59,429 nucleotides of DNA from a virus. Lineage: Duplodnaviria; Caudoviricetes. Numbering within the stretch: position 1 is the first letter of the stretch; each line of letters starts with the position of its first letter. Position numbers and translations under genes: made by a program. The notes under the pieces are model-generated. The model was not told where the DNA came from and did not search any database. It saw nothing but the letters and a program-made list of their open reading frames with translations. The stretch is taken from positions 1-59,429 of IMG/VR virus record IMGVR_UViG_3300049913_000005; one strand, written 5' to 3'. Of the stretch, positions 1,313 to 59,389 are shown in pieces.

Positions 1313-2121
1313 TACTGTTCCTCCATACTTGTGCGTACACCGGCGTTATCGTACACGGTCTGCATCATGTGCGTAATATTAGGTTCAGTAATTACATCAG
1401 GTAATGTACCCTGAACACGTTCGCCTGTCTCGTATTGCGGATGCGGTCCGATGAGTAGACGACGTACCTTTCGCGTGGGCTGACCTTGTTCATCAGATTC
1501 TTGGTCGACATAAAGATAACCGCAGATGTCTACCCAATACGGCAATGAACTTTTAATCTGTCCCTGCATGTACGGCTTCCACCTTCCCCCTTCCCCCTGG
1601 GTGGTCTCGGCAATGATGACGACACATCGAACCGGTAGACCGGCGATAAGTGTAAGATCGCGGTATCCACGAATGAGGTCATCCATTTTCGTAAGTAATG
1701 TACCCCAGTCCTGAATCTTCATTGCCTCAGTGCCAACGAGATTCTTCTTACACCGTCGCTGAACCTCAGTTACCGAATCGATCACGATGGACTGGAATTG
1801 ATGTGGAGCCTGCGTAAGCCAAGCGTACGCTTGCTGCAATGTGGCCCAGTCATTCACGACAACATGACAGACGTCCCACGTACCGTCATACTGTGGTGGT
1901 GGCCCGCTTACTGGATTCCACTTACGCTTACGAAGTGGTGCGCCATTGAAGTTCACGCGACCGATGAACTTCCAACTTCCTTCTGCGTCGAGTACCAAGA
2001 TTGGTGTTGGTGCAGACGACGTAAGTGTTGACTTCCCAGCTTTACTGGCTGCATGTATCAGCATTGAAATGCATTCATCCGGTGTGAACACACGTGTAGC
2101 ATGCGCATTCAGATCCGTCAC
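1312..2121 (-). CDS. AAA_24 / Sak4-like ATPase (recombinase)
   Basis: Walker A-like ASKAGKST, LDAEGS, IVIDS Walker B; lies between exonuclease and SSB. Confidence 0.8.
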   Translation of the reverse strand: MTDLNAHATRVFTPDECISMLIHAASKAGKSTLTSSAPTPILVLDAEGSWKFIGRVNFNGAPLRKRKWNPVSGPPPQYDGTWDVCHVVVNDWATLQQAYAWLTQAPHQFQSIVIDSVTEVQRRCKKNLVGTEAMKIQDWGTLLTKMDDLIRGYRDLTLIAGLPVRCVVIIAETTQGEGGRWKPYMQGQIKSSLPYWVDICGYLYVDQESDEQGQPTRKVRRLLIGPHPQYETGERVQGTLPDVITEPNITHMMQTVYDNAGVRTSMEEQ

Positions 2122-2144
2122 GTCATACTCCTTTCATCATACAG

Positions 2145-3536
2145 TTATTCGATGTTAGTTGTAACGTCTTTCATATAGTAATCGAGTGGTTCACCTTTTG
2201 TATAGAGCTGGTGTAGCATCGCTTCGGATCGTGATCCATCGTCGATCATACTGCATACCGCCACAAATGGGCACTTCCAATGACAGTCACGTGATGGCGT
2301 CGGCACGACAACGTCATGATGATCGACACCATTAACGAGCAGACGTTCCGTATCATGAATCGTTACTACCGTGCGTGCGACATGCTTGCGGTAGTTCTCA
2401 ATAGTATGAGGATTATGACGTACCTCAGCACGACCGTAAAATGGTGGTTTTGCGGCTGCGGTACGCTTTACCTTACGCAGCATGTTATAGATCGCACCAC
2501 CACAACGCTCATCATTGTCTGTTGTGTTCAGCAACTCGAGCAAGTGATAATGCTTCATCTGCACATCAAGCGGTAGGTTACGCACAGGTGTCGTTAGATC
2601 CATGACCGTCTTATGGTCCATAAAACGACGAACACCATCGAGTCTATTCGTTAGACGTACGTCCAGTTTTCCGATAATCTTTGTGTCCGGATACCCAGGG
2701 GGCAGTTCAAGTACAGCCTCAATGTACATCTCAGCTGACACAACACTCAGTTCAGTGTCTGCACCAGTCTCTTCGAGCCACTCCATATACCCAGAGATCA
2801 TTGCACGTTCGAGGTTAGCTTCGGTGTTAAAGTCCTTACTGAATCGTGCGATCTCAATACTTTCTTCGCCATATGTGCGAACAAGTGTTGTCCAGTCATT
2901 CGTGATACAACGTTCAAGTGCGATCTTTGGGTCGAGCGGAACGATGCCATCTGGTGTGTACCACGCCTGTAGTGCACGATGAATACGATTGCCAATGGCG
3001 AGTGCACCCAGGGGGGACTGCTGTCGCAACCGTAGACCTAGGTACCATCCGAGGTACCATCGACGTTGGCATTCTTCGAATGTTCGCATCTCAGAGTTAG
3101 AAAACAACCGATATCCGGCGTTCGGATCCGGCCCAAGAAGTGTCGCATTCGCACCGTGAAGTGCGATAGCACGTTCAAGGTCGTGCGGTGAGACCGTCTC
3201 AGACTTGCTACGTAGATGCGTCCAGTCGATACCATTGGCTACCGGTGCAACTGGCTTGTCGATGGTCTCAACAGGTTCTACCGGTGCCGTAGTTGTATCG
3301 GACGGAACAGATGCGACGGCTGGTTGTGTTGTTTCCCCCTGGGTGTCAGCGCGTTCGCCGTCATATGGTCCAAGTAGACGTTCGAGTTCGACAAGTTCGT
3401 CCGCACTGACCGTACGGCCCATACCTTTTTCAATTGCATATACTCGACCATTCTTAATGTTGGTGACATCAGAGATGTTTCGACGTGACAACTTACATTC
3501 AGTTCGTCGACCTGTCATCCACTCGGCGATGGTCAT
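2145..3536 (-). CDS. PD-(D/E)XK RecB/Cas4-like exonuclease with N-terminal XRE-type HTH
   Basis: GKLD...DHKT nuclease motif, GNRIH, C-terminal CHWKCPFVAVC Cys cluster; N-terminal HTH-like helices. Confidence 0.8.
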   Translation of the reverse strand: MTIAEWMTGRRTECKLSRRNISDVTNIKNGRVYAIEKGMGRTVSADELVELERLLGPYDGERADTQGETTQPAVASVPSDTTTAPVEPVETIDKPVAPVANGIDWTHLRSKSETVSPHDLERAIALHGANATLLGPDPNAGYRLFSNSEMRTFEECQRRWYLGWYLGLRLRQQSPLGALAIGNRIHRALQAWYTPDGIVPLDPKIALERCITNDWTTLVRTYGEESIEIARFSKDFNTEANLERAMISGYMEWLEETGADTELSVVSAEMYIEAVLELPPGYPDTKIIGKLDVRLTNRLDGVRRFMDHKTVMDLTTPVRNLPLDVQMKHYHLLELLNTTDNDERCGGAIYNMLRKVKRTAAAKPPFYGRAEVRHNPHTIENYRKHVARTVVTIHDTERLLVNGVDHHDVVVPTPSRDCHWKCPFVAVCSMIDDGSRSEAMLHQLYTKGEPLDYYMKDVTTNIE

Positions 3537-5425
3537 GCGTACTCGCTTAGATCGGTTGAAAGAATAAGTTGTTCCTCGGCATCAAGTTGCTGTGTACTGC
3601 CGCCTGCAGCAATGATGGTCGCACGTGCACGCATAATTTCTTCGAGTCTGTTCATCTTCTCATAGAGCATATCCATCTGACGGTTCTCCACAGTGCCATT
3701 AGTGACGATATGCACAACAAGAATAGACTCGTGATGTTCAGAACCAATGCGATGAACACGATTCTCAGCTTGGACATAATCAATCATCGAATCAGGTCGC
3801 TGGATAAAGATGATGGTATCGGCTGCCGTCATTGTAAGACCGGTTCCGCCGGCTTTCACGGTGAAAAGTAACACACGCAGATCACCGGCTTGGAATGCAG
3901 CGAGATTACGATCACGATCACGTTGGTTAACGGCACCAGTGATGAGACCGTATGGTATGTTCTCGGCGCTGAGACGTGCGGCCGCAAGTTCGATAAGTTG
4001 TCGGTGTTCGGCCGCAATGACGATCGGCTTAGGTCCAAGTTCATCCATGCAGATCAAAAGTTCGTCTATCTTCGGTGATGGTTCACAAGGTGTAACATGC
4101 CATCCAGACCAGTCATCGGTTGATATGTCGACTGGTCGTTCAATGGTACAGTATGATGATGCAAGTTGCATGAGGCGTCCACGACGCACCAGACGTGATG
4201 GTGTTGATAAGAGTTCACCATCGTCAAGTTGTGTCTGCGCCATTGTACTAAGTTCCGCATACGCCTTGCGCTGTTTCGGCACCATCTCAACATACCGCAC
4301 AACACGGATACGCGGTGGAAGTTGTGGTAAGACGAGTGCCTTTGGCATCGCACGAAAGTGTGGATCGAGAATCTTAAAGAATTCAGTACGCTTGTCAGGT
4401 TGAATACCAATGACGTTAAGTCCACCGTACGCGTTCCATCCAGTCAGACAGTATCGATCGATGAACTTACCGCGTGTCGGATAATCGTTTGGCGCGATGC
4501 CATGCATGATCGACCAAAGGTCATCTGGCGCGTTCGCGATCGGTGTACCAGTCATTGCCCAACGACGAATAACCGATGACTGATGCATGACGGCCCAGCA
4601 TGCGCGTGTCTGTTTTGAATGTGGATCCTTGATGCGATGCGCCTCATCGATAATCACCGTCTTGAACAGAATCGCGTTCAGTTCCTTCTGATGCACATCA
4701 CATCGTGTTGACTTGAGATCCACATCACCAGTTCGTGGATCACATTCACGACACTTTACGAGTCGGATTGAACCGTAGCCTGCAAGACGTGAATGCATTC
4801 GCACGGCTTCAATGTTAATGATCACAAACGCCGTTGGGTCATTCTTTGCCTGTGCGAGTAGTTTTCGTTTTACTACTGGTCCACCTGTGATTACATATGG
4901 TGTCGATTCTGGATACCAGATGTTGATCTCTCGCTGCCAATGGGTCTTTACCGAATTGGGGCAGATCACAAGTGCCGGTAGTGCGTCATCTTGTCGTCTA
5001 AGTGCGGAGAGTGCCTGTATCGTCTTGCCAGTACCCATGTCATCGCCAAGCAATGCTTCACGATTATGTGTAAGAAATCGTGCGCCGATCTCTTGAAATG
5101 AGTACAACGGCGTAGTGTCTTTTCCATCGGTCGGTGCCGTCAATGATCGAAGAACAAGTGATGGTTCGATGTGGTTCGTATTATAGTCACGCGCCCACGC
5201 GATGATGCCATCGCCCAGGTGGAGATTTGCGCCAAAGACACCACGAAGAACAAGACATGAACTCCAACTAAGTGGAAGATTCCAGACGCCGGCTCGTGGT
5301 CGATTCCACACGGTGCCAGGCACGGTCTTAATAAGTTCACGTTCTTGCCATGTTGTCTGTACAATGATGTGTTGTATACCGGCATCTACCGCAACCTCAG
5401 CGAATGCCATGTGATCTCCAGTCAT
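3533..5425 (-). CDS. SNF2-family (SF2) helicase
   Basis: DDMGTGKT, DEAH, TGTP, QAENRVHRIG motifs. Confidence 0.93.
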   Translation of the reverse strand: MTGDHMAFAEVAVDAGIQHIIVQTTWQERELIKTVPGTVWNRPRAGVWNLPLSWSSCLVLRGVFGANLHLGDGIIAWARDYNTNHIEPSLVLRSLTAPTDGKDTTPLYSFQEIGARFLTHNREALLGDDMGTGKTIQALSALRRQDDALPALVICPNSVKTHWQREINIWYPESTPYVITGGPVVKRKLLAQAKNDPTAFVIINIEAVRMHSRLAGYGSIRLVKCRECDPRTGDVDLKSTRCDVHQKELNAILFKTVIIDEAHRIKDPHSKQTRACWAVMHQSSVIRRWAMTGTPIANAPDDLWSIMHGIAPNDYPTRGKFIDRYCLTGWNAYGGLNVIGIQPDKRTEFFKILDPHFRAMPKALVLPQLPPRIRVVRYVEMVPKQRKAYAELSTMAQTQLDDGELLSTPSRLVRRGRLMQLASSYCTIERPVDISTDDWSGWHVTPCEPSPKIDELLICMDELGPKPIVIAAEHRQLIELAAARLSAENIPYGLITGAVNQRDRDRNLAAFQAGDLRVLLFTVKAGGTGLTMTAADTIIFIQRPDSMIDYVQAENRVHRIGSEHHESILVVHIVTNGTVENRQMDMLYEKMNRLEEIMRARATIIAAGGSTQQLDAEEQLILSTDLSEYA

Positions 5426-5442: not shown

Positions 5443-5895
5443 TTAGAAGTTAATAGTACCACGTGTCAAGAGCGATTGGTATACGTGGGGAAACTGTCGA
5501 AGAATGAGCAGCATAGCATGCCGCATTGCATCATTACCGTGAGTCATCTTCGGCATATAGAGTTTCGCGCGCCGAAGTGTATCATTCGTGATCATCTTAG
5601 CGTCAGATGCTGACTGTAACCGAAACACAGTGTTGCACTTACATGCCGCCGTCTCGATGGCACCGATAACATGTAATGCATCGGACTGACGTGTTGCACG
5701 TGTCGTCTGTCTCCCAATGATGTATCGTTCGCATGCGATGTATGTGGTAACATCATCTTGTACTGCGTTAAGCCAATTCGCCACCCACGTTATGGCATTA
5801 TCCGGCGTCTTTTCATACACGCCAAATCCATGTTTTTCGGTGACGTGTGCGATTCCGGTGGTACCCCCTGGGTCAATACCGATGATATCGATCAT
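5443..5895 (-). CDS. RuvC-like Holliday junction resolvase
   Basis: GIDPGGTTG N-terminus, internal E, HGNDA C-terminal acidic motif. Confidence 0.75.
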   Translation of the reverse strand: MIDIIGIDPGGTTGIAHVTEKHGFGVYEKTPDNAITWVANWLNAVQDDVTTYIACERYIIGRQTTRATRQSDALHVIGAIETAACKCNTVFRLQSASDAKMITNDTLRRAKLYMPKMTHGNDAMRHAMLLILRQFPHVYQSLLTRGTINF

Positions 5896-7840: not shown

Positions 7841-8495
7841 CGACTACCTCCAACCCACAGTCGCGCATGAATTCCATCCACTTAAGCGGATCGCGATACA
7901 GTACGTGTTCTTGCGATGATGTATCGATAACAACGCGAGAAAGACCTGAGTTCGCGATCAATTTAGCGCACGTTGAACAGACAGATGACGTAACATAGAT
8001 GGTGCCGAACTGTCGTGCTGAACGATCACAGACGATAAGTGCGTTAGCCTCAGCATGTAATGACACACAATCATCATATTCTTTGTCAAGTACTGGACCG
8101 TCATAACCCCAGCATCCACACAAGCTACATGCATCTGGTGCTTCATGCGCACCGCTATGATCAATATGTATATGTCCACACTTACACATTGCGCGTGAAC
8201 GTTTACACCAGTTCACACATGGCGACGGATCAGGTCGATCACGTATGTCTTCAATTCCGCAATCATCACGGAAGAAACCCCATGGTGGACCGTTATATCC
8301 AGTCGCTACAACACGATTATCCGAGTCAATGATAACCGCACCTACTTGATCACGATTACACAATGATCTGTGTGACATCACGTGTGCGATCGCTAGCCAC
8401 GTCTGATCCCACGACGGGCGTGAGAACGGTTTCATCGGCGGATCGTTCGTCCGCGCAGACATACTGTCGGAGTTGTTCATGGTACCATGCCTCAC
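7821..8495 (-). CDS. dCMP deaminase with Cys/His-rich insertion (true start may be slightly downstream)
   Basis: RPSWD..W, QVGAVI, TGYNG, HAEANA, CSTC zinc motif. Confidence 0.9.
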   Translation of the reverse strand: MRHGTMNNSDSMSARTNDPPMKPFSRPSWDQTWLAIAHVMSHRSLCNRDQVGAVIIDSDNRVVATGYNGPPWGFFRDDCGIEDIRDRPDPSPCVNWCKRSRAMCKCGHIHIDHSGAHEAPDACSLCGCWGYDGPVLDKEYDDCVSLHAEANALIVCDRSARQFGTIYVTSSVCSTCAKLIANSGLSRVVIDTSSQEHVLYRDPLKWMEFMRDCGLEVVVVSPRT

Positions 8496-9288
8496 TTGGT
8501 GTCAGATCGTAAAACTTATCAGTATCACGTGTCGTAACATATTTCGCACGATTCATGATATGTTCAATATCGTGACCGTGTCGTCCAAACCCATGGGGGT
8601 GATACGGCAATTGTTCCGATGGCGCATGAAGTTTGTCGACATCACATAAGTTACGTTCGTATATGTGCAACGACCACACCATGTGCGTATACAACCCAGG
8701 GGGAATATTCAGCGCATTCGCCACGGTTAACTGCAATTGCGTGAACTGGAAAAGATCATACGCAAACCCAAGCCATACGTCGTTCGATCGCATCACGGTA
8801 TTCATGCATAACATACCGTCAATGATCGTAAAGTCAAACCCAACGGTGCACGGATAGTCGCGTTTCAACGGTCGATTGTCGACGTGTGGTTGCCATAGCG
8901 TTACAACGGCCTGACGTGTGTCTGGATCCTCTTGTAGCTTTCGGATGACGTGTACCAACTGATTACCGATCCGCGTGCCGTACGCACCCCAGAACTGTCC
9001 ATCCGGTTCGATGAACTTCTGGAAATTCGGTGAGATACGAAGCATGAGATTCGGATCGGAGAATCCTCCGATAAGCTGCGCAGCCTCGACCGCACCGATA
9101 GAAGGTTTGACGCCACGACCGCATGCGTACGGCAATGAATGAATCGGGTCGGTGATCTCGATGAGGGTTGGACCTACGTCACGTGTTGGAATCCCCCTGG
9201 GTGTGCGACGTGTGCCAGCATGTGCGACCCATTGTACTAACTGCCAATAGTCTTGGTATCCTGACGTAAGGTGAATGACGGACGCCAT
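8356..9288 (-). CDS. Thymidylate-synthase-fold enzyme, probably a dCMP hydroxymethylase (T4 gp42-like)
   Basis: GAYG.R, DTRQAV, catalytic DYPCT, MRSNDVWLGFAYD (Asp where ThyA has Asn), SLHIYE. Confidence 0.8.
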   Translation of the reverse strand: MASVIHLTSGYQDYWQLVQWVAHAGTRRTPRGIPTRDVGPTLIEITDPIHSLPYACGRGVKPSIGAVEAAQLIGGFSDPNLMLRISPNFQKFIEPDGQFWGAYGTRIGNQLVHVIRKLQEDPDTRQAVVTLWQPHVDNRPLKRDYPCTVGFDFTIIDGMLCMNTVMRSNDVWLGFAYDLFQFTQLQLTVANALNIPPGLYTHMVWSLHIYERNLCDVDKLHAPSEQLPYHPHGFGRHGHDIEHIMNRAKYVTTRDTDKFYDLTPSEAWYHEQLRQYVCADERSADETVLTPVVGSDVASDRTRDVTQIIV

Positions 9289-10214
9289 GATGATCTATCC
9301 TCCTGGTCATACATCGTCTTCTCAATAAGTTTACCATATCGATCACCGTTACGATAATGAAAACGACGTACAAACTGCGGATGCGGCATGGCACCGTGTT
9401 CATGCAGAAATGCGCGATGTGCTGCAGCACCAAGTGTCACCGTACATGGGCAGCCAAGCTGATGCCATAGTTCATCAGCATTGTCGACATCACATGCGTT
9501 TGAGATACCGATGTCGTATGAACCCGTGTCAAGATGAGAAAGAAGAAAATGACCAGATGTTGCGGCATATGGCATAAACGCAGGATAGTTGGTACGTGCG
9601 CTGACGCCGCGGTTCTCGCCGAGAAGTAGAAAATCTGGTTTTGGTTCACCGATATATGTTGTGAATGGTGCGAGATGCTGTACTGACTCTTCCGCGCGTT
9701 GTGCCGCAGAAATGATCGAGTCGATGTCTACGCGTACTGACTTCCATTGCAGTAATGGAAGACGTGTTCCGGCTATGGCACTGCGATATTCTTGCATCAA
9801 TGCTGGAATGTGCCCAGCACGTACAAAGTCATCACGTCCGGGGCCAACACGTGACTTCATAACGTTGATATCGTCATAAACGAAGACAACGATCGCTCCA
9901 CGTGCGCGTAGAAACAATTCGACATGCGCATTCACCGCGGGATCATATCGTGTCGGACGCCTAAAGACACGCGGATAAACAATCTCACCTAGATGCCAAC
10001 GATCACAAATGACATGCAGTTGACCCAGGGGGGAATGCGGTGATGGACGATACCCCATAAGTGGTGACTCATACTCATCGAGCGGATGCGTTGTAGGCGG
10101 ACCAGCGTGCAACTGCAACGGTGGTGATTCACCAAGTTGCACAAGACGATGTGCGAGTTTGTTACGAAGATATGACTTACCCGCGCCGTCAGGACCTTCA
10201 AGAATAATCAGCAT
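9237..10214 (-). CDS. dNMP (thymidylate-like) kinase fused to a uracil-DNA-glycosylase-like domain
   Basis: LEGPDGAGKS P-loop and CDRW; C-terminal LLGEN, F.P...SG.FL, SNA, LG..A and HPQF motifs resembling the UDG superfamily. Confidence 0.75.
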   Translation of the reverse strand: MLIILEGPDGAGKSYLRNKLAHRLVQLGESPPLQLHAGPPTTHPLDEYESPLMGYRPSPHSPLGQLHVICDRWHLGEIVYPRVFRRPTRYDPAVNAHVELFLRARGAIVVFVYDDINVMKSRVGPGRDDFVRAGHIPALMQEYRSAIAGTRLPLLQWKSVRVDIDSIISAAQRAEESVQHLAPFTTYIGEPKPDFLLLGENRGVSARTNYPAFMPYAATSGHFLLSHLDTGSYDIGISNACDVDNADELWHQLGCPCTVTLGAAAHRAFLHEHGAMPHPQFVRRFHYRNGDRYGKLIEKTMYDQEDRSSWRPSFTLRQDTKTIGS

Positions 10215-10880: not shown

Positions 10881-11465
10881 TTATGATTCGATCTGAAGGA
10901 ACGTAACTCCTCGTGGTGTTGGGAGATGCAGTGCGCAGAGTCCCGTCACCGTACACTCGAATTCTTCACGGATCCCGTGATGATATGCGGTATCGTGAAC
11001 ACCAATGACCGCCCCCTGGGTGAACCATTCGGCATCGAGCATCATATCTAGTTCGTGTTGACGTATCTCAAGTAACGAATCAAGCCACGCAAACCCGATC
11101 TTTCTGCGTAATGATGTTCGGATATTTTGTCCGATGAATGCAAGTGACGTTGTTTGTATTACTGACACCGGGAGATCGGCACATCGTGTACGTGCAATAT
11201 TGCATCGTTCTGTGTCAGGTTCAAGTGTTATGAGAGTACCGTGACCATTCAACTTTAACGCCATACCGATCGCCGCTGCGGTGTAACCGAACGCCGTGCC
11301 GGTCTCGATCACGAACTCCGGTTGCAACGTACGGACGAATGCGGCGACAAGTTCCGTCACCTCGACCTCCGTTGAATCCGTATCATACCCGTGCCAGTAG
11401 CCAGGATGTGGACAGACGTCGGTCGGTGCTGAAAATATGTCTTCAGTACGCGTAATTGGTTCCAT
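10881..11465 (-). CDS. Class I SAM-dependent methyltransferase (Methyltransf_24-like)
   Basis: VIETGTAFGYT motif I, TLEPD, WLDS, GVHDT. Confidence 0.8.
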   Translation of the reverse strand: MEPITRTEDIFSAPTDVCPHPGYWHGYDTDSTEVEVTELVAAFVRTLQPEFVIETGTAFGYTAAAIGMALKLNGHGTLITLEPDTERCNIARTRCADLPVSVIQTTSLAFIGQNIRTSLRRKIGFAWLDSLLEIRQHELDMMLDAEWFTQGAVIGVHDTAYHHGIREEFECTVTGLCALHLPTPRGVTFLQIES

Positions 11466-12075: not shown

Positions 12076-12273
12076 ATGGCACGCATTATCGATAGTCGTG
12101 TAGGACCTGTAGTTCCTAAACTTGTTCGTATTGCGGTTCCGGTCTTTCGAGCCTCCGCACTTGTGGCAGCTGGCGAACTCGTATCGCATACAACTATGAT
12201 CAACCAACTTCTTACTGAAGCACTCGAGATGCGTGGTGTTGATATCGAGTCAAACGAGAGTGTTGATGCCTGA
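12076..12273 (+). CDS. Small DNA-binding protein (ribbon-helix-helix-like)
   Basis: LVRIAVPV..A...AA......MINQLLTEAL pattern; directly upstream of the primase. Confidence 0.45.
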   Translation: MARIIDSRVGPVVPKLVRIAVPVFRASALVAAGELVSHTTMINQLLTEALEMRGVDIESNESVDA

Positions 12274-30581: not shown

Positions 30582-30773
30582 ATGTGTGGATGTGGAAAAC
30601 GTGCACGCACCGGTACGACATCCGTAAGTGCGGATGCTGCTACGCCCCCTGGGTCGACAACGACATCGACACCCACACCACGTGGTGACAGAAACCCGCG
30701 TGGTATGACATCTGCTGGCATTAGTACTGATCGTAAATCGATCGCGGCTGCCATCAGAAATTCACGATCGTAG
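30582..30773 (+). CDS. Small protein (MCGCGK start)
   Basis: AAGGAG RBS; commonly found before the capsid gene in actinophages. Confidence 0.55.
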   Translation: MCGCGKRARTGTTSVSADAATPPGSTTTSTPTPRGDRNPRGMTSAGISTDRKSIAAAIRNSRS

Positions 30774-46237: not shown

Positions 46238-46591
46238 CTATAATGACCATGTGAGTCCGCACGACATACACATACTGTATTGATTATGCGCACTAACATT
46301 CTGTGTATTGCATTGTGGACATGACTTTCGTTGTCTATGCGAATTAAGTTGTCTCCGCTGATATGCTGTTAACCCTCCGTAGATTTCGTCCCATTCACCC
46401 AGGGGGTCCTCAATCAACGCATACATAAGACAGTCTTGTCGTACACCGCATCTATCACATATGGCCTGTACCCCTGGGTCTGGGGTGATGTCCCATGCAT
46501 TTGCGGAGAACCGCAGCATCGTGATAGATGTTGTGCCGATTGGTGGATGTCGGCACAACCCATCCTCCGACCATTCGCGAAACGATCGCAT
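46238..46591 (-). CDS. whiB: WhiB-family transcription factor with C-terminal zinc ribbon
   Basis: W...GLC, C..C.VR..CL.YAL, IYGGLT..QR; additional CPQC/CMSC. Confidence 0.8.
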   Translation of the reverse strand: MRSFREWSEDGLCRHPPIGTTSITMLRFSANAWDITPDPGVQAICDRCGVRQDCLMYALIEDPLGEWDEIYGGLTAYQRRQLNSHRQRKSCPQCNTQNVSAHNQYSMCMSCGLTWSL

Positions 46592-48966: not shown

Positions 48967-49005
48967 ATCTACCCCCTGGGCATATCTACCCAGGGGGTAT
49001 CGATC
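48967..49005. repeat. Intergenic hairpin formed by two inverted CCCCCTGGG motifs
   Basis: TACCCCCTGGG-CATATCTA-CCCAGGGGGTA. Confidence 0.8.
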
Positions 49006-49012: not shown

Positions 49013-49930
49013 CTAGTTGGTTCGAGCGTTGATCCGGTCGACGAGTGAATTGATCGCTTTGTTCGATGGACCTCCCAGCATACCCAGGAACCGCGACTCC
49101 GGCGTACCGAGTGCACGCTCCCATTGATAGTAGCTCGAGGTGGCGTTGATCAGTCCCCACGCTGTGCCGGCGAATTCGTTCACCGTCTCGTCATTGTGGC
49201 TGATCGCGATGATCTCTTCCTTGACCTCATCACGCGACTTGAGATACCGTTCGATCACGCCGTCAAGCAGCCGCCGTGCCTCGTCATCGGTGATCGTCAT
49301 CTCGGCGTATCCACGCATCGCCTGTGCGTACGACTTACCGTACTCCTGGATGTTGCTGAGCGTCATCTGTGCCTCATGCATACGCTCGCTTGCGCTCCGC
49401 GTGTGACGGATCGACCAGCGCAGGTGCGCCCCCTGGGTGAATGTCTTGATCGCAAGTCCGTTCATGCATTTCGATCGAAGCGGCATGACGGCGACCTCGA
49501 CGGCCCGTGAGCAGTTGTGGCTGGTGCGCAGCACGACATACAACTCGTGCGGGTCGACATCGGTGAGAAGATCGGTGTTCTCTGGCACCTTCACGACCAT
49601 GAAACCTTGCTTGCCGCCGGAAAGTGGACCGGCCGCGACGTACCGCGGGTTGATGGTGTCCATGAACGTGAATGCCTCGCGATACTGGACGATCTCGTAC
49701 ACCTCGGAGACGACGCCCAGTCCCTCACCGTTGTCGGTGCGAACGGTGGCGTAACGCTCGGGGAACGTCAGCGTCTCGTCGTTCCACTGGTACGTGAGCG
49801 GCGCGAGTGCGACGTCGAAGTCGAGTCCGGAGAGCCGCGCGGCCTCCTCGGCGGTGACGGGTTCGTCGACGAGCCGACCGAGTTTCATCCAGGGGGCTTC
49901 GCGCGTAGAGAACATGGTAGCGGCGGTCAT
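49013..49930 (-). CDS. DUF932/DUF945-family protein
   Basis: PW..LG, A..SGLDF.V, LGVVS..Y..VQ, SH, C.NGL, RHT, GTAWG..NA. Confidence 0.85.
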   Translation of the reverse strand: MTAATMFSTREAPWMKLGRLVDEPVTAEEAARLSGLDFDVALAPLTYQWNDETLTFPERYATVRTDNGEGLGVVSEVYEIVQYREAFTFMDTINPRYVAAGPLSGGKQGFMVVKVPENTDLLTDVDPHELYVVLRTSHNCSRAVEVAVMPLRSKCMNGLAIKTFTQGAHLRWSIRHTRSASERMHEAQMTLSNIQEYGKSYAQAMRGYAEMTITDDEARRLLDGVIERYLKSRDEVKEEIIAISHNDETVNEFAGTAWGLINATSSYYQWERALGTPESRFLGMLGGPSNKAINSLVDRINARTN

Positions 49931-52294: not shown

Positions 52295-52560
52295 TCGTCA
52301 TAACTCGTTGTTGTTCTGGTTGTTGCCTCGTGTATTACACTACCAGGTCTGTGAGTTAATGTAAATAGGTAATCGCAAGATCTTTACAGGTTGGCCCGGG
52401 CCGACCTCGCCACAGCCCGGGCCAACCATGGTAGTCGACAGACTTGTGGTCGTCAACTACCCCTGGGTGATCGATCATCTATCGCTCGCCAGACTCAAGC
52501 GTGGGTCGCCGTGGATACGATGTCAACATTCATCCACTCCCTCTGATCGATCATCCAATC

Positions 52561-52939: not shown

Positions 52940-54541
52940 CTATACAGACGGGTCAGGCTGTTCCGTAATCATTGGCGTGCATACGGACCAACGGTGCGCA
53001 CCGGTCGCATGTTCGCGCTTGATTCGTCCGTCACGCCGCAGCCGATAGAGCGACAGATAAACAAAGTTTGCGCCGAGTTCGGTTCCCTCGGCGATCTCTG
53101 TACGCGTCTTTGCGCCGTCCTGTGCTGTCATCCAGTCGTATACCTGCTCATCGCGAGTAATAGTCTCGCTGGGACGCGGACGTCCCTGACGCCGGTGTGC
53201 CGTAGTTCCGGTGTCTGCGGCCTCAGTGGTTGGCGTCTCAGTGGTCGACACCTCAGTGTCATTCATTCTAGTTACTCCTAACGTGATTTTCGCAACGCGT
53301 GTAACTCTATCACGTGTTGCGACAGACTTACGTCCATCGGTAAAATTAATGTCAAACTCACGATCACCGATACATTCACCATGATAAAGATCAGGTAAAC
53401 CGTTAAGCGCATGTTGAAGTGCAGTTCCGATCCACTTACCGCACTGTACAGTGATACCTTTCCCCCACGTCATCGTGAGTCCAGGATGATGACGTAGTGG
53501 CGCAATCTTCCAGTCATCCGGAAAACCCATGATACGTGCGGTTTCACGGTGCGTTAACATACGATCAAGTTGTGGATGCATCGCGCAGCACATCGCCGCA
53601 CCTGTGACGACGCGTGACGGTCGATTACCATTCCATCGTGTTGGTGTCGTATATCCGAGTTGAAAGTCACTCTTAACGACTTTCTCCTCCGTATACTTCC
53701 ACGAATCAGGAAGCTTCGCGTATGCGTCCCAATACCGTCGTGCCACAATCGCAAGATGTTCGTCTGGGTGCCACGCAACACCGTGTGTTAAGTCAACACA
53801 TCGTTGAGCTAATGGCGTGTCACGTGTGATATGCCCGTCCACAACCCCCTGGGTAGATACGACATGTTGATTCACCCAGGGGGAAGGTTCACGGTTATAT
53901 GGCTGTGCATCCCATGACATCTCAAGATTAATGAGATCGCCGATTGCATCATTCAGTATGATGTTACCGTTGGTAAGCGTATCGGGATCGACACCGAACG
54001 GGATACGTGATGCAATCCAGAAATATCGTCGACGTTCGGCGACACCGCCGACGAATCTGGCGTTATGCCGAACATGGTAGAGCGTCCACGATTCGTCCGT
54101 CAGGTCTTCCAATTTCGCGCGCAGTTGACGCATCAGGCCCAGTCCGTCTGACCTGGTACGGGCCATTTGAACCGACTCAAACACCACGATCTGTGGTCGT
54201 ACCCGCGCGGCGTATTCAATCAGACGCCACATGCACGCGTTGATTGGAGAATCGGCACCTCTGAATTCATGGTTCGACATGACACTAAATCCGGAGCATG
54301 GCGGATTGCCAAACACGACATCAGCATCGACCGTCGACCACGCTTCAGTCGATGTAGCATTTCGTGGAAGCGTTTCGGCTTTCCAATCATTCCCAAGAAT
54401 GTGACGATTAGCTTCGCAGCTGGCGACACCGAATCCGCCGTATAGTTCACGTTTACCGACAAGACTGAATCCAGCTTGCACCATTCCAGTGGTAAAACCG
54501 CCGGCAAAACCCATGATGTCAACGGCACGATACATGATCAC
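52940..54541 (-). CDS. DNA cytosine-C5 methyltransferase homologue with in-frame C-terminal winged-HTH
   Basis: GNPPCSGFS (IV), FESV (VI), RRRYF (VIII), LT.RE.AR.MGFPD (IX); C-terminal TRTEIAE...VYLSL.RL...G. Confidence 0.85.
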   Translation of the reverse strand: MIMYRAVDIMGFAGGFTTGMVQAGFSLVGKRELYGGFGVASCEANRHILGNDWKAETLPRNATSTEAWSTVDADVVFGNPPCSGFSVMSNHEFRGADSPINACMWRLIEYAARVRPQIVVFESVQMARTRSDGLGLMRQLRAKLEDLTDESWTLYHVRHNARFVGGVAERRRYFWIASRIPFGVDPDTLTNGNIILNDAIGDLINLEMSWDAQPYNREPSPWVNQHVVSTQGVVDGHITRDTPLAQRCVDLTHGVAWHPDEHLAIVARRYWDAYAKLPDSWKYTEEKVVKSDFQLGYTTPTRWNGNRPSRVVTGAAMCCAMHPQLDRMLTHRETARIMGFPDDWKIAPLRHHPGLTMTWGKGITVQCGKWIGTALQHALNGLPDLYHGECIGDREFDINFTDGRKSVATRDRVTRVAKITLGVTRMNDTEVSTTETPTTEAADTGTTAHRRQGRPRPSETITRDEQVYDWMTAQDGAKTRTEIAEGTELGANFVYLSLYRLRRDGRIKREHATGAHRWSVCTPMITEQPDPSV

Positions 54542-55104
54542 ATTCTATCAAGTTGGTCAAGATAGGTTTTCACCACGGGCGGAAGTTCGCTATCACATCC
54601 ACCACAAATATAGATCGTCTTACCGTCATAACCGCGTATTTCATGCACGACAACATCAGTGACATCACGATTACAATGCGCACATTTGCTTGAGATACCG
54701 TCATAACCGATAGCTTGCCGTTTAGCGTTTACATCACATTTACTCATGTATGCACGATAGAAATCACGTGCAATATCTTCAGGTGCAAGATCTGGTTTAA
54801 TCACAAGTAAGAGATTCATGATGAAGTGCCAACAGTCAACGAGTTCGCCAAAGAATGCACCATCATTGATAAAGAGATTGTCATCAGTCGTGAGCCACGG
54901 TTTCCATGAACATTCTTGCAGCACCTCAGCCTGTAGTTCATTGCTCAATGACAGTACCATGTCACGAATGTATATGATGCGTTCATGAAGTGTCATCGAT
55001 GAGAACGTAAAGCCGAATTTAGTTTGAAGTTCTTTTTGTGCCTGAATCATAACGGAAAGACGATCAAGTGACAGATACTCAGACAGTTCAGGTTCATTTG
55101 TCAT
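54538..55104 (-). CDS. All-alpha dNTP pyrophosphatase (dimeric dUTPase / T4 gp56 dCTPase-like) with zinc-ribbon tail
   Basis: Q..LQ, E...E, WKPW, ELVD.WHF, Y..K...N..RQ..GY. Confidence 0.85.
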   Translation of the reverse strand: MTNEPELSEYLSLDRLSVMIQAQKELQTKFGFTFSSMTLHERIIYIRDMVLSLSNELQAEVLQECSWKPWLTTDDNLFINDGAFFGELVDCWHFIMNLLLVIKPDLAPEDIARDFYRAYMSKCDVNAKRQAIGYDGISSKCAHCNRDVTDVVVHEIRGYDGKTIYICGGCDSELPPVVKTYLDQLDRM

Positions 55105-56552
55105 GCTGATGTCAATCCTAACTGTTTCTCGATAAGTCGTTCGGTGTAATGTTTATTCCATCGCCGCGCGAGCAGATTACGTTGCCAATCGGTAATGACA
55201 CGCCAGGTAACTGGTCCCATCATATCAACACGTTCACTTAGTTCACTTGGCATGTCGACTCGAAGCCATGCCGCGAGCCAGAGATCTTCTTCAGTCCAAT
55301 CGTCACGAATCGAGTAGAAGTTTCGTCCATTCACCTGACCGACGTAATGCGTGCCGTCATTGTGGCAACGCGTCGGAATAATCCATCCTTGTTCGTCAAG
55401 TTGTTCGATCATAAAACAAACGGTACGTGCCGCAAAGCACTGGAATGGTTTCGCCGTCGACCAACCAGTATCGAGTGGTGGTAACGCTATCGTGCATCGC
55501 CACCGATTGAGATGGCTTGGAAACTCGTGAGGTGGTCTGCGCGCCACTGGGTGATCGGCAATATCAACGAGACTGACCGCATCCCATTTGCCGAATACCT
55601 CGACATCTGGCCATGCATTAACCAGATAGTCACGAACATACTCTGAACGTCGACGTCTTCCTACGTTGAATGATGTGGTGGCAACACCGATCGTCTGGCG
55701 ATCATCATAGCCTGCTGGACCCCACGTCTCCCAGTCGTCTGGAAGAATCATCAATTCAAGTCCACCATACCTATATGTATGACGAACACGCCACAAATTA
55801 CTATGACATGCATCACTATCCGTCTCTGCAATATCGCTAAAGTTTAGAGAATATGGCGTACGCGCGTCACCGTGACGATCATGTCGTTGGTGTCGTTGGT
55901 ACTCGTATTGCGCAAGTATGTTACCCAATCCAGTGGGCCATTTAACAGATCGTGTCTTAAGGTAGTTGCGTGGGTCTGTGACAATCCATGCGACAGGTGC
56001 TCGACCGTTCGTACGGTCTCCGAGTCTATTGAGTCCATCAACAAGAAATTCTTCGTAGTTCCTTGTCCAAGCTTGTGGGTTTGTTCCATATGTGACGGGA
56101 TCAATGGCGACATCATCCCATGTATGTCCGATAAGTGGGATAACACCACTGCACGTTCCGTGCTGTCCTACATGGACGATCATACCGTCAAGTTCGGCAA
56201 TCATTCGTGTAACGTCACGTGCGGTGTTGTACGATCGCATATCATTGATAAGATATGATGGACTATTTTCAATCGTAATCATACTAGACATACGATCTGG
56301 CTTTACTGAGTTAATGTGCTGTACTGGACCGTTTCGGAACCAGTCAGCATCTACCGGCCAGGGATTAGTGATGTTGGCTGGCAACCCCTGGGTGCACCGG
56401 TCGTTCTTGCCTACGATGACCCACTCTACATCTGGGTTACGTTCAGCCAATCGAAGAAGCAAGTTGGGTGCCTCGGCATCGCCCTGAAATCCGAACTTCG
56501 TACGATCGAACTCCATGCAACGACCAAGTTTGGCATAGCCGATACGTGTCAT
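55101..56552 (-). CDS. T4 beta-glucosyltransferase-like DNA base glycosyltransferase
   Basis: VTDPR (cf. BGT FTDIR catalytic Asp), RRRRSE, EVFGKW, CF...LD.Q..I, LRV..PSEL.ERV, WQR.LL, collinear with BGT as I recall its sequence. Confidence 0.7.
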   Translation of the reverse strand: MTRIGYAKLGRCMEFDRTKFGFQGDAEAPNLLLRLAERNPDVEWVIVGKNDRCTQGLPANITNPWPVDADWFRNGPVQHINSVKPDRMSSMITIENSPSYLINDMRSYNTARDVTRMIAELDGMIVHVGQHGTCSGVIPLIGHTWDDVAIDPVTYGTNPQAWTRNYEEFLVDGLNRLGDRTNGRAPVAWIVTDPRNYLKTRSVKWPTGLGNILAQYEYQRHQRHDRHGDARTPYSLNFSDIAETDSDACHSNLWRVRHTYRYGGLELMILPDDWETWGPAGYDDRQTIGVATTSFNVGRRRRSEYVRDYLVNAWPDVEVFGKWDAVSLVDIADHPVARRPPHEFPSHLNRWRCTIALPPLDTGWSTAKPFQCFAARTVCFMIEQLDEQGWIIPTRCHNDGTHYVGQVNGRNFYSIRDDWTEEDLWLAAWLRVDMPSELSERVDMMGPVTWRVITDWQRNLLARRWNKHYTERLIEKQLGLTSA

Positions 56553-58105
56553 GATGTGAGATCTTTCATCCAGGTCTCAGCCATATCGATAAGGTATGTG
56601 GTAAGTGGTTCAGGATGCAATGGTGCGCAATTGATAAGAGAGATCACACCAATCATCTCGATATCGCGAAGATTAAGTTCATTGCAGTTACGTATGAATT
56701 CTCGAATCATTTCGAGGTAGTCACGGCCTTCAACCCAGGGGGTAAAGTTACCGTGACGCACACGTTCCCAATGAACAACACATCCAGCCATTAACTTGGC
56801 GAGATCGTATCGCAGATCACCCCACGGGTTACCTTCAAAGTCTGAGCGCCAGTCGATTCCGATCGGTGTGTTGTAGACGTCATCGTTACGTTCCCATGGA
56901 ATGATGATGATGTTACCGAAGTTAAAATCACCATGTGCTGGGCCGGATAGAACACCACGCGCGATGTCGTCCCAACGAACACACATCAATATGTGCTTTG
57001 CACGTCGCTGCAATTCCGCAGGTAGCGTCGCGATACGGTTCATCGTTTTATCAAAGTAAAAGCGACGTGTGGTGTGCACTATGTCATCGGTTGCACATGC
57101 ATTTGGTATACGAATGGGCCAGATAATCGACGCCCATGCGTCCAAAATTTGTTGCACGATCCAATACTCATTCATTACGATTGCTTTATACGCCGTGACA
57201 CCTGGGGCATATTCATATGCAAGCATATTCATATTATGCTCGCACGTATCAATGAGACTGGGCACGAACGAGTCAAGAATGTCACAACGATCACGACTGA
57301 TACTGGTCATAAGCGGGTCAGCGTACCATTTAATGACACGACCGATCTCCGGTAGTACGTATGTCGCTTGTCGTTCCTTCGACCAGTCGATGCCTTCGCG
57401 TCGCACAACTTCATTGTGGTATGACGTGGCGTCGCCGACATCAGTCCAGTCAATGTGCATCACTTTTAACGGTGAACCTAACGCAGACAGCGCGATAAAT
57501 CCACCAGATACCTGTACCTCATTGTCGATCGACTCGCCGGATGCAACACCGGTCCAGAAGTCATCGAGGTCTTCACGAACGACTTGTGCTAATCCCGTGT
57601 ATACATACTGCTCAAATCCATGAAAACCTTCGTGCCCACTGACTGGTTTTTTATCAAGTATCTCGATGATGTCGCTATTGTTGGCGTAGACCCGGCACCA
57701 ACGTTCAGGTTTTGTATTATGCGGAATCGGCGCAACTGCGGCCCACGATGACGTACGCGTCCACATGGTTTCATCACGTCGCCAGAGCGTGTCACACGAT
57801 GTAAAGATCATATCTTCATCGCCAACGACGTGACGCGCTATCAGCAATGATCCCCCTGGGCCGATTGGGTTATCGTCTGTGACGAACTCGATCGGCGTAA
57901 ACGGGTGCGCCAGCCGCGTATACTCCTTGATCTGGCCACCATTATGACCAATCACAATGATGATGCGCGAACCGTATGGCGCGAGATCAATGATATGCGA
58001 AAGAACAGCCTTACCGCCCAGGGGGACAAGGGCCTTATGCAATGATTTACCGACACGCCCGATACGACTGCCTTTACCCGCGGCGAGAATCACAAATGCT
58101 GTCAC
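56549..58105 (-). CDS. Sugar nucleotidyltransferase fused to an APH/choline-kinase-like sugar kinase
   Basis: ILAAGKGSR....K.L.P, SCD, DKKP, W.DVG; C-terminal HGDFNFGNI, IDWR, GD.RYDLAKL. Confidence 0.85.
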   Translation of the reverse strand: MTAFVILAAGKGSRIGRVGKSLHKALVPLGGKAVLSHIIDLAPYGSRIIIVIGHNGGQIKEYTRLAHPFTPIEFVTDDNPIGPGGSLLIARHVVGDEDMIFTSCDTLWRRDETMWTRTSSWAAVAPIPHNTKPERWCRVYANNSDIIEILDKKPVSGHEGFHGFEQYVYTGLAQVVREDLDDFWTGVASGESIDNEVQVSGGFIALSALGSPLKVMHIDWTDVGDATSYHNEVVRREGIDWSKERQATYVLPEIGRVIKWYADPLMTSISRDRCDILDSFVPSLIDTCEHNMNMLAYEYAPGVTAYKAIVMNEYWIVQQILDAWASIIWPIRIPNACATDDIVHTTRRFYFDKTMNRIATLPAELQRRAKHILMCVRWDDIARGVLSGPAHGDFNFGNIIIIPWERNDDVYNTPIGIDWRSDFEGNPWGDLRYDLAKLMAGCVVHWERVRHGNFTPWVEGRDYLEMIREFIRNCNELNLRDIEMIGVISLINCAPLHPEPLTTYLIDMAETWMKDLTS

Positions 58106-58503
58106 GCGTCCGCCCTACCATATGAGTCATTTACACGATGAATGTCATCGTCACCACCGACACATACCTCGAGATACAGTAGTTCACCAATAACCTGATG
58201 CAAGAAACCTGGCTCGATCGTCGTACCGGTTACAGCATTCGCGGTCGTTACGCCGTCTTGCTCAACAATACGTCCGTTACCTTCGCACGGGAATAGCATC
58301 TCGACCTTCTCGTCGTGATACTGCATCGACGTGCACTGCTCATGCTTGACGTGGATGACCTTCAGTTTCAGTTCATCGCCGATTTCAATGATATACTCAT
58401 GCCCCCACGGTTTCTCGACGCGTCGAATCGTCGCTTCGCGAAGCATCTCAATAAGTATGATACCAAGATGTTTAGCCAGCCCTGATCGCTGCACGAATAA
58501 CAC
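58102..58503 (-). CDS. Cupin sugar-phosphate isomerase (type II mannose-6-P isomerase C-terminal-like); start probably 58446
   Basis: VEKPWGHE, S.QYH..K.E, H, D..R..D.YGR. Confidence 0.8.
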   Translation of the reverse strand: MLFVQRSGLAKHLGIILIEMLREATIRRVEKPWGHEYIIEIGDELKLKVIHVKHEQCTSMQYHDEKVEMLFPCEGNGRIVEQDGVTTANAVTGTTIEPGFLHQVIGELLYLEVCVGGDDDIHRVNDSYGRADA

Positions 58504-59389
58504 TCCTTACATATTCTTCACGTGGTGTATCAAGCGTGCAGATTTCTTTTACCTCAGGTTCATTGAGAATGTATCGTACGCCGCACTTTGCATGATCATA
58601 CTTACTACCGACATACAGTCCATTCTGTTGCGTGTCAAACCATCGCTTCCAGTGACCTGCGGCATATGCACGATCAAGCAACTCACGCGTAATGTCAAAG
58701 TCAAGTACGTCCAGAAGCGCTTCCGTCTCTACGAGTGCAAGTTCAGGTGCAAGGTTGTAGTAATCGAGTACATCATCGAACCTATTACGGTTACCGACCC
58801 AGTCCATGTTATGCGCTTTTAATGCAATGTCGTTGTCATACGCGAATCGTGCATAACGACGAAGTAAGTTGACCGATATCGGCGTACCGCACTGTCGATC
58901 GTTTCTCACTAATGTACCGATCGAGACAACAGCCGCCGCGATACGATCAGTATCGACAACCACAAACGCCGTTGCGAGTAAGTCATCATTGTGATCTTGA
59001 GAGATATGTTCGCCACCGATATCGAACATTACGTTAGCATCATGGTAGCATTGAAGTATCGCCATCTGCGCTCGAAGTGTCGACGCCCATGAGTCGTATG
59101 TCGCAGCAGTGACATCTACGTGAAGAATATCGAATCCAGCCTCGATGTCGGCATCGAATGATGCGAAACCGTCATCGCCTTTGCCACTCTGGTTAGGTCC
59201 GCCATGGTCACGGACAATCTTCGTACTAAATGAGTGATACCGAACGATGTCGACAAGTTCCCCCTGGGTTAACCCAGTGTAACCGCCGTCGATATCCACT
59301 TGTCGACGCGATGCAATGATCTGCGTGACGTTCAGTTTTGCGGCTTCCTCAATGACTCGCAGTGATGTCGCACCCACGCATAAACGCAT
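58472..59389 (-). CDS. GatZ/KbaZ-like tagatose-phosphate epimerase (aldolase-fold)
   Basis: ASRRQVD..GGYTG, RDHGGP, GFD.LH.D, K.HN.D, N.APE. Confidence 0.75.
   Translation of the reverse strand: MRLCVGATSLRVIEEAAKLNVTQIIASRRQVDIDGGYTGLTQGELVDIVRYHSFSTKIVRDHGGPNQSGKGDDGFASFDADIEAGFDILHVDVTAATYDSWASTLRAQMAILQCYHDANVMFDIGGEHISQDHNDDLLATAFVVVDTDRIAAAVVSIGTLVRNDRQCGTPISVNLLRRYARFAYDNDIALKAHNMDWVGNRNRFDDVLDYYNLAPELALVETEALLDVLDFDITRELLDRAYAAGHWKRWFDTQQNGLYVGSKYDHAKCGVRYILNEPEVKEICTLDTPREEYVRSVIRAAIRAG

Follow-up and report, generated by a model that had tools for sequence, protein, structure and literature searches.

The stretch of DNA analysed here, referred to as the window, has 59,429 bp and comprises an entire IMG/VR virus record, which is flagged as carrying direct terminal repeats; the phage genome it represents is named G000. 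Its guanine and cytosine (GC) content is 50%. G000 encodes the large terminase subunit (TerL), portal, MuF-ADP-ribosyltransferase, tape measure, tail and capsid proteins, a replication and recombination block (PolA, PrimPol-D5, SNF2, a PD-(D/E)XK nuclease with a helix-turn-helix (HTH), AAA_24 and DUF669), as well as WhiB, an Rv2525c-like lysin and a GDSL lipase. By gene content, with WhiB, the lysin and the lipase among the markers, it is apparently a tailed phage of an actinobacterium. The subject of this work is a short asymmetric word, CCCCCTGGG (or CCCAGGGGG on the other strand), which is iterated along the whole of G000. Its iteration is genuine, far from random and found across the lineage.

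No match among cultured phages was obtained by megablast with 10 kb of G000, and the identity of PolA to that of any cultured phage is below 38%, the top matches being found in Microbacterium, Micrococcus, Arthrobacter and Gordonia phages. Open reading frames (ORFs) were mapped with a heuristic that greedily takes the longest ORF, rather than with a gene caller, giving 76 ORFs and 95.7% coding DNA. About 55 of the 76 were compared with Pfam or PHROGs, and among the proteins scanned there were neither lysogeny nor competence genes. Relatives were located via PolA (10 loci) and by alignment of the C5-cytosine methyltransferase (MTase; 35 loci), and 17 whole records were taken; about 30 core genes are common to all 18 genomes, motif-rich or motif-poor. 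A Logan contig with a circular joint, 59,332 nt long at a depth of about 31 and from the one run found to hold the sequence, shows 0 differences to positions 1-20000 of the window, which excludes an assembly artefact, with the reservation that the Logan run is possibly the source sample, so that the agreement is not independent data. The circular assembly, by itself, would suggest that the genome is circularly permuted.

The iterated word in G000

A sequence-only reading of the window had listed 41 starts of the 9-mer CCCCCTGGG and six additional occurrences of the 8-mer CCCCTGGG, and each of them proved exact. The 9-mer is thus present in 41 copies (26 on the plus strand and 15 on the minus strand) and the 8-mer in 47, 41 of which carry the fifth C, while every one of the 47 CCCWGGG heptamers in the window is part of CCCCTGGG. 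The extension of about 35 copies to the 10-mer CCCCCTGGGT was likewise borne out (35/41), the base after the remaining 9-mers being C in five cases and A in one. Positions 2-9 of CCCCCTGGGT are essentially invariant, with almost no one-mismatch neighbours; the flanks are biased to W-W upstream and, after the T, to G (20/41) followed by A (20/41). The word is asymmetric in that its strict 5′ run of C has no symmetric partner.

Apart from the copies given below with their inverted pairs or their orthologues, exact matches to the 9-mer lie on the plus strand at 1593..1601, 3335..3343, 5864..5872, 11012..11020, 13253..13261, 15730..15738, 18564..18572, 20395..20403, 23264..23272, 26139..26147, 28476..28484, 30645..30653, 34846..34854, 36302..36310, 39434..39442, 41777..41785, 44175..44183, 46982..46990, 49429..49437, 57852..57860 and 59260..59268, and on the minus strand at 2694..2702, 3007..3015, 8695..8703, 10024..10032, 12345..12353, 13455..13463, 29381..29389, 33974..33982, 36616..36624, 46398..46406, 56734..56742 and 58017..58025. 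The 8-mer is matched exactly at 20715..20722 and 37316..37323 on the minus strand and at 46471..46478, 52460..52467 and 56385..56392 on the plus strand; the sixth such site, at 19734..19741 on the minus strand, has an orthologue described below.

Markov models of order 0-3 predict 0.04-0.48 copies of the 9-mer against the 41 observed, so that the earlier estimate of roughly one copy by chance was right about the excess but too generous in its figure. The enrichment persists under dinucleotide-preserving shuffles (n = 100; mean 0.10, standard deviation 0.33, maximum 2) and under synonymous-codon shuffles that keep the proteins and the per-gene codon usage (n = 300; mean 2.9, maximum 6). The pentamer CCWGG itself is unremarkable, with 124 sites against 59-119 expected. 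All six reading frames are used by the sites and 45 of the 47 copies lie inside ORFs; by the heuristic ORF map, 24 run in the sense of their gene and 21 antisense to it, and 2 are intergenic. Since the six frames are all used and the excess survives the codon shuffle, the word is imposed on the DNA whatever it encodes, in line with the proposal that selection or drive acts on the DNA and not on the protein. The balance of 24 sites with and 21 against transcription also agrees with the statement that the word is unlike a stoperator.

The fairly even spacing noted previously was confirmed for the whole set of sites: the coefficient of variation (CV) of the gaps is 0.74 against 0.97 simulated (P = 0.02) and the largest gap is 3.3 kb against 5.6 kb (P = 0.005). 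The regularity is more pronounced when the strands are separated. On the majority strand of G000 (29 sites) the gap CV is 0.42 against 0.95 simulated, with none of 20,000 simulations reaching so low a value (P<1e-4), and the largest gap is 4.2 kb where 8.1 kb would be expected. Majority-strand regularity is significant in five of nine genomes, G000 included (G004, P = 0.002; G001, P = 0.005; G002, P = 0.023; G008, P = 0.024). The strand-specific interval between copies is about 2-3 kb, and the overall density of the motif across the lineage is 1 per 1.3-2.8 kb.

When the nine genomes are oriented alike, 232 of 370 sites (63%, P about 1e-6) are found on one strand, and this holds in eight of the nine genomes, the exception being G013. 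The favoured strand is that of the terminase and late genes (230:137); in G000 the gene for TerL (phrog_2) occupies 19262..20830 on the plus strand, and most copies of the motif are oriented in the sense of its coding strand. Orientation also alternates along G000, with 32 switches against 22.7 +/- 3.2 (P = 0.003). Alternation leans the same way in G002 (P = 0.13), G004 (P = 0.14) and G008 (P = 0.04), with no such lean in G003, G001, G024, G013 and G007.

Close inverted pairs able to form hairpins occur in G000 (three, with gaps of 8-21 bp), G003 and G004, in each case in the genome's own dialect of the word. In G000 the first pair lies in the portal gene, with its left arm at 25280..25288 on the minus strand and its right arm at 25296..25304 on the plus strand, and another lies within the C5-MTase gene, at 53845..53853 (plus) and 53875..53883 (minus). 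The sole intergenic pair, also hairpin-forming, has its left arm at 48972..48980 (plus) and its right arm at 48989..48997 (minus), and is bordered by a NADAR-domain gene (48357-48905, minus) and a DUF932 gene (49013-49930, minus). DUF932 is kept in 17 of the 18 lineage genomes, and a 26% identical homologue is encoded by G032, one of the P22-like phages described below.

In the literature searched we found no phage description of strand-by-strand periodicity of such a word. Among the matches listed for the word itself there were just primers and eukaryotic sequences, and a query on the over-representation of Chi in phage genomes returned nothing.

Dialects and turnover in the lineage

An unbiased k-mer screen of each relative genome revealed that uncultured relatives of G000 carry aligned one-base dialects of its word, namely CCACTGGG, CCGCTGGG, CCGCTGGA and CTCCCTGGR. 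The form of G000 itself, CCCCTGGG, is enriched in G002 (22 observed against 0.4 expected). The dialect CCACTGGG is found in G003 (34 against 5.4) and G004 (58 against 4.3), CCGCTGGG in G013 (48 against 8.7) and G007 (23 against 4.0), CCCGCTGGG in G008 (35 against 1.3), CCCGCTGGA in G024 (22 against 1.3) and C-T-CCCTGG-R in G001 (counted as TCCCTGG, 45 against 10). As an octamer the word ranks first in G000, G003, G004, G008 and G024, second in G002 and third in G007. Enrichment is weak or missing in G009, G011, G012, G014, G018, G019, G020 and G021, and over the 18 genomes it is graded from about 100-fold down to none. In a 75,028-bp relative, G026 (GC 49%), another word is over-represented, the palindrome CCTCGAGG, with 18 copies against 0.6 expected, as is CCCAGGG, with 19 against 2.8.

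The family as a whole can be written C-[C/T]-C-[C/A/G]-C-T-G-G-[G/A]-[T/C], with a shared 3′ preference for Y-R-A. Three of its dialects, CCACTGGG, CCGCTGGG and CCGCTGGA, do not contain CCWGG, and not all are palindromic. As C-x-CTGG is the sole part constant across dialects, the palindrome CCCWGGG with its internal CCWGG, described by the sequence-only reading as the core of the motif, is correct for G000 but incidental in the lineage.

Turnover of individual sites is high. Where orthologues could be aligned, 3 of 22 sites of G000 are also present in G002, 2 of 21 in G001, 0 of 19 in G003 and 0 of 21 in G004; 5 of 13 sites of G004 are common to G003. The 9-mer at 9193..9201 (plus) has an orthologous site in G002, and that at 15464..15472 (plus) is identical in G002 and switched to CTCCCTGGA in G001. 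The orthologue in G001 of the 8-mer at 19734..19741 is likewise G001's variant. Both sites shared with G001 have thus changed to the G001 dialect, as exemplified by CCCCCTGGGTGA -> CTCCCTGGATGA. The creation of sites tolerates amino-acid changes.

Candidate readers and modification genes of the phage

A comparison of gene presence and absence over the 18 genomes gave no G000 protein that is found in all motif-rich genomes and absent from all motif-poor ones. The candidate named by the sequence-only reading was the C5-MTase (52940..54541, minus), which has a C-terminal winged-HTH-like (wHTH) tail. It is a core gene of the lineage with intact catalytic motifs, and is found equally in motif-poor genomes, so that the proposed link of the motif to the MTase is not supported. 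The wHTH is also present in motif-poor genomes (tblastn detected it in 17 genomes and an alignment added G003), and the putative recognition helix hardly varies from one motif class to the next. The variable region of the MTase was compared for 15 enzymes (22 + 83 pairs; 3 of 36 sequences had been dropped for short translation). In pairs of the same motif class its identity is 0.42-0.59 at a core identity of 0.62-0.66, and in pairs of different class 0.43-0.57 at 0.71-0.73, with no excess in the same-class pairs at equal core divergence. Vsr (PF03852) was detected in none of the five genomes G000-G004, with positive controls, and TET/JBP proteins were not found in the same five. With relatives' words lacking CCWGG and not all palindromic, no co-variation of the MTase and no Vsr, the reading of the word as a C5-MTase target or as a methylation-driven highly iterated palindrome (HIP1) is not supported.

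The MTase ORF of G001 (L036:698-1903) and of G002 (L034:3184-4389) ends at about 401 amino acids, and the tblastn alignment runs on into the wHTH tail, which in these two genomes may be a separate ORF or be reached by a frameshift. When genome contigs were searched with the MTase profile, one distant match was obtained, in a non-actinobacterial metagenome-assembled genome that has no WhiB and contains the motif at background frequency (493 against 383 for the control).

Other phage products merit attention as possible readers. The PD-(D/E)XK nuclease (2145..3536, minus) is of the RecB/AddB/Cas4 type with a weak N-terminal HTH and is kept in 18 of 18 genomes; a SNF2-family helicase (3533..5425, minus), the start of whose gene overlaps the end of the nuclease gene, is its candidate partner. 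A rival candidate, the fusion of an archaeo-eukaryotic primase (AEP) PrimPol to a D5-like helicase (12233..14743, plus), is considered below with the hypothesis of priming.

The DNA of G000 is probably modified to glycosylated 5-hydroxymethylcytosine (5hmC) by a T4-like toolkit, as judged from its genes of nucleotide metabolism. A ThyA-family pyrimidine hydroxymethylase (8356..9288, minus) is closest to CMP 5-hydroxymethylases (E 2.7e-18, against 1.9e-13 for true thymidylate synthase) and has Asp in place of the Asn with which thymidylate synthases read uracil. A conserved protein of 483 amino acids and of no known family (55101..56552, minus) was modelled with a mean confidence (pLDDT) of 88 as a GT-B fold, its best match in the PDB being T4 beta-glucosyltransferase (E 2.6e-8). 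The set is completed by a dCMP deaminase, a kinase-like protein and a dimeric-dUTPase-family NTPase, encoded by ORFs at 7821-8495, 9237-10214 and 54538-55104, all on the minus strand. Homologues of the toolkit are found in all 18 genomes compared, except for the deaminase, which was outside the ORF set. If true, glycosylated 5hmC in an actinobacterial host would extend T4-type chemistry to a new host phylum.

Genes in the style of sugar-nucleotide metabolism are located at 56549-59389, 47-610 and 10881-11465, all on the minus strand, and encode a MobA-like NTP transferase, a cupin/mannose-6-P-isomerase-like protein, a 305-amino-acid protein, an HAD hydrolase and a CmcI-like S-adenosylmethionine-dependent methyltransferase. 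The last of these is confined to G000 among the 18 genomes, the HAD, cupin and 305-amino-acid proteins also match G021, and the NTP transferase also matches G018, G020 and G021 (30-45% identity). These genes may supply an unusual sugar donor for glycosylation of DNA or of the virion. Two glycosyltransferase-like genes at the end of the tail module, 43979-44596 (plus; GT2) and 44772-45848 (plus; weakly GT1-like), are kept in 17 of 18 genomes and possibly serve virion glycosylation, as in some mycobacteriophages. The MuF-like head protein (25474-27984, plus) is fused to an ADP-ribosyltransferase exoenzyme domain (Pfam E 2e-22) and is probably an ejected effector.

A probable polar signal and its alternatives

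The sequence-only reading had offered binding, modification, genome organisation, packaging, ejection or a HIP1-like iteration as the role of the motif. A signal for some DNA-handling machine stands as the best class of explanation, whereas the parts of that proposal that concern the MTase-wHTH protein, CCWGG and HIP1 do not. Within this class the word is likely to be a strand-specific signal addressed to a DNA-tracking enzyme, a description wide enough to include priming and nicking. More specifically, and tentatively, we favour a polar tag of the type of Chi or of the uptake signal sequences (USS), which would modulate a DNA-tracking helicase-nuclease. The statistics, polarity, periodicity and dialects of the word, and the lack of any phage gene that co-varies with it, are observations; from them we infer a reader and a biochemical effect as follows.

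The lineage would have accumulated a short asymmetric word on both strands, at intervals of about 2-3 kb per strand. With regular copies on both strands, a tracking enzyme entering at any point and moving in either direction would soon reach a correctly oriented copy. At such a copy a processive helicase-nuclease would be made to stop degrading and turn to protection or recombination, and broken, permuted or concatemer ends of the phage DNA might be rescued in this way. The reader could be a host enzyme of the RecBCD or AdnAB type or, alternatively, the phage SNF2 helicase acting with the RecB-type PD-(D/E)XK nuclease; both are candidates, the host enzyme being the more likely. One-base dialects would then correspond to differing hosts or reader alleles, and loss of the enrichment in larger relatives to other means of handling the nuclease.

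Several observations fit this picture. The missing phage-gene correlate of the enrichment suits a host-side reader, or a varying dependence on one. Per-strand regularity together with alternation is what would be expected if, at any break, the signal had to serve both directions. The constant CTGG core, with GCTGG in two dialect classes, resembles the Chi sequences of E. coli and Pseudomonas. The comparison with Chi-rich phages is instructive. According to the available part of PMC12315714, E. coli phage LLS has 23 Chi sites (1 per 1.86 kb), 20 of them in the active 'top-strand' orientation (20:3), P1 has 50 (1 per 1.9 kb), Chi is the top octamer in both, and Pseudomonas phage MD8 carries 32 copies of the host-specific variant GCTGGCGC, all in one orientation (32:0); the same source reports that in lambdoid phages the abundance of Chi is anticorrelated with the anti-RecBCD repertoire. 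As in LLS, P1 and MD8, the word studied here is asymmetric and the commonest octamer, at 1 per about 1.3-2 kb where about one copy would be expected; it lies in coding DNA, is biased, if far less strongly, to the terminase strand (the convention of active Chi in LLS), has lineage variants and varies in abundance among close relatives.

Uptake sequences provide the second likeness. The USS of Haemophilus and the DNA uptake sequences (DUS) of Neisseria, as portrayed in the part of PMC2817400 that was available, also have a non-palindromic core of 9-10 nt with weaker flanks, occur about once per kb in both orientations, are spaced more evenly than random, lie in many cases in genes and in several frames, form intergenic dyad pairs and come in lineage dialects. 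They differ in that their carriers are competent bacteria whose uptake machinery reads them, while the word of G000 sits in a virus that has no known counterpart of uptake, and favours one strand. Chi and the uptake sequences have one logic in common, in which a DNA segment profits from a correctly oriented word within a few kb.

A number of points weigh against the proposal. Majority-strand spacing is not significantly regular in G003, G007, G013 and G024 (P = 0.12 in G024), and none of the minority strands is significantly regular (P = 0.07-0.9). Polarity reaches just 63% in the lineage, compared with 87-100% in LLS and MD8, and the sites are spread evenly and not clustered at an end; circular permutation, with ends or breaks anywhere, would account for both features. 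At 9-10 nt, with strict positions 2-9, the word is longer than known Chi. The phage has a recombination module of its own (AAA_24, DUF669 and the PD-(D/E)XK nuclease). Its C-rich word would probably be heavily modified if the DNA contains glycosyl-5hmC, which may keep a host enzyme from reading it. The apparent host and the probable hypermodification also set G000 apart from the Chi-rich phages, as does a reader that is a candidate only. Finally, as far as the available parts of PMC5314763 and PMC12848934 go, no Chi is known from Actinobacteria, and a Chi-independent action has been suggested for AdnAB.

One rival to the helicase-nuclease tag, and one that we regard as unlikely, takes the word for a site of template recognition and initiation by the PrimPol-D5 helicase, placed once per Okazaki-fragment length on each strand. 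The regularity of about 2-3 kb per strand, with one strand favoured, is in keeping with it, and a PrimPol domain is encoded in all five full genomes (31-44% identity). AEP PrimPols read template words via a helix-bundle domain, GTG in pRN1 and TTTGGTTA together with GTGA/GTGG in NrS-1, where synthesis starts with the base immediately 5′ of the recognised word (PMC8718748, in the part available), and the 3′ flank consensus of the motif is G-GTGA. Yet conservation is weakest in the GTG part (G at +11 in 20/41) and strict in CCCCTGGG, and known primase sites have 3-4 nt. PrimPol is present in 18 of 23 records and in 13 of 14 near-complete relatives, motif-poor ones included, while G000 and G002 have the same word despite PrimPol domains that are just 31% identical. 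G002, moreover, has just 8 sites on one strand, with gaps of up to 15 kb.

We are similarly sceptical of a packaging or architectural tag, that is, a word bound by the small terminase subunit (TerS) or by a condensing protein, such that copy-rich DNA wins capsids and copies accumulate. In length, density, orientation, evenness, dyad pairs and subtypes the signature is like that of USS and DUS (PMC2817400, same part), and the majority orientation follows the terminase gene. An A-variant inverted-pair scan of IMG/VR led in addition to P22-like phages of Proteobacteria (G030-G034), unrelated to G000, whose portal is 76% identical to that of a Gammaproteobacteria phage. These phages carry arrays of ACCCACTGGGT (occasionally ACCCGCTGGGT), with 6-12 copies about 20 bp apart located just upstream of terS (phrog_1482), terL and portal, and no more than 2-7 copies elsewhere; examples are G034:38104-38707, G032:6756-7335 and L280:283-707. 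Judged by sequence, such an array could be a TerS-binding packaging (pac) site or a terminal Chi-like array. However, the word was itself the query, run against 2.9 million contigs, and the hosts belong to another phylum, so that the match may be coincidental and is a lead rather than proof. A hidden Markov model built from the TerS proteins of five array phages found nothing significant among six-frame ORFs of the lineage (best E-values 3-9). The sites of G000 are dispersed, with no array near terL (19262), and headful packaging requires one start site, not 47.

The corresponding scan for C-variant direct arrays returned 15 loci, mostly unrelated tandem repeats and none of them convincing, including L380 with 2-3 copies upstream of a TerL homologue. 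In the C-variant inverted-pair scan of IMG/VR, which covered 80 of at least 118 stretches, more than 2 copies were present at 20 of the 80 loci. Of these, the 12 with the most copies were set aside as a different phenomenon: they hold 4-8 copies against 0.3-2.4 expected (2 being guaranteed by the search), are high in GC, form hairpins, show no 3′ T preference and gave 0 protein matches to G000. Phage contigs of about 70% GC (L103, L077, L125, L091, L119, L082 and others) have conserved CCCCCTGGG...CCCAGGGGG hairpins with a modest excess of the 9-mer, and no proteins in common with G000.

It is improbable that the word punctuates hypermodified DNA at intervals with a special state, as the target of the C5-MTase-like protein or of another modifier. 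The proposal has in its favour the intact MTase among the core genes, the cytosines in the constant core of the word, the inverted pair inside the MTase gene and the rich set of DNA-modification genes. On the other side stand the occurrence of MTase and wHTH in motif-poor relatives, a variable region that does not track motif class, the invariant recognition helix and the absence of Vsr and of TET/JBP noted above. Where cytosine is replaced by 5hmC, the C5-MTase would presumably be unable to methylate the cytosines of the word, and a modification target accounts neither for the 100-fold enrichment nor for the per-strand periodicity.

Phages with localised nicks at consensus words are on record (PMC3517423, PMC11780129). 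For G000 we consider it very unlikely that the word is where a phage-encoded nickase breaks a single strand, in the manner of T5, tf or phiKMV-type phages: the word is asymmetric and strand-specific and lies on both strands, but no HNH or GIY-YIG nickase was detected among the proteins scanned, known nicked phages have few sites, and the three close inverted pairs would become double-strand breaks. Hardly more credence can be given to a molecular drive without benefit to the phage, in which biased repair or gene conversion turns near-matches into the word: high turnover, tolerance of amino-acid changes and continuous enrichment among relatives would suit it, and USS are held to spread in this manner (PMC2817400, part available), but there is no Vsr-type enzyme, a repair bias at a single position cannot raise a 9-mer 100-fold, and periodicity per strand with a consistent strand bias requires an advantage at the level of fragments or one dependent on direction.

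Other iterated elements are more distant parallels. The stoperators of Cluster A mycobacteriophages, also discussed in PMC4351075, resemble the word in being short, asymmetric and present in tens of copies in an actinophage. They follow the direction of transcription, however, and are the binding sites of the immunity repressor, unlike the copies in G000, where orientation is balanced with respect to the genes and no lysogeny genes were seen among the proteins scanned. HIP1-type elements are iterated palindromes linked to MTases, and share with the word the extreme excess of an 8-9-mer whatever the coding frame and the presence of an MTase; the lineage word differs in being non-palindromic, in its lack of MTase co-variation and of Vsr, and in its strand polarity and periodicity. 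The 17-bp repeats of Cluster O mycobacteriophages (34 copies, dyad-symmetric with 7-bp arms, mostly intergenic or at gene starts) are similar in that more than 30 dispersed copies occur in an actinophage, not tied to promoters and with no known function (PMC4351075). Those repeats are concentrated in one arm of the genome and keep their positions, unlike the word of G000, which is asymmetric, lies within ORFs in 45 of 47 cases, is evenly spaced and turns over rapidly.

The helicase-nuclease tag thus remains our preferred, if tentative, explanation. A lineage of uncultured, hypermodified actinophages may tag its own genome with a strand-specific, periodic 'self' word of 9-10 nt that exists in one-base dialects, a possibility to which we give some but not predominant weight. 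It is rare for dispersed words to override coding, and wherever such words have been understood (Chi, USS/DUS, the FtsK-orienting polar sequences KOPS, and stoperators) a DNA-handling machine has come to light; the statistics of the present word are unusually clean. The dialect series amounts to a natural run of specificity switches and supplies candidate sequences for actinobacterial RecBCD/AdnAB or for a phage nuclease, primase or terminase. If the reader is encoded by the phage, the word would represent a new viral self-tagging system, USS-like, serving replication, protection or encapsidation, with a reader that co-evolves with about 50 sites per genome. If a host helicase-nuclease reads it, these words would be the first Chi equivalents for Actinobacteria, discovered via phages and directly testable on AdnAB/RecBCD.

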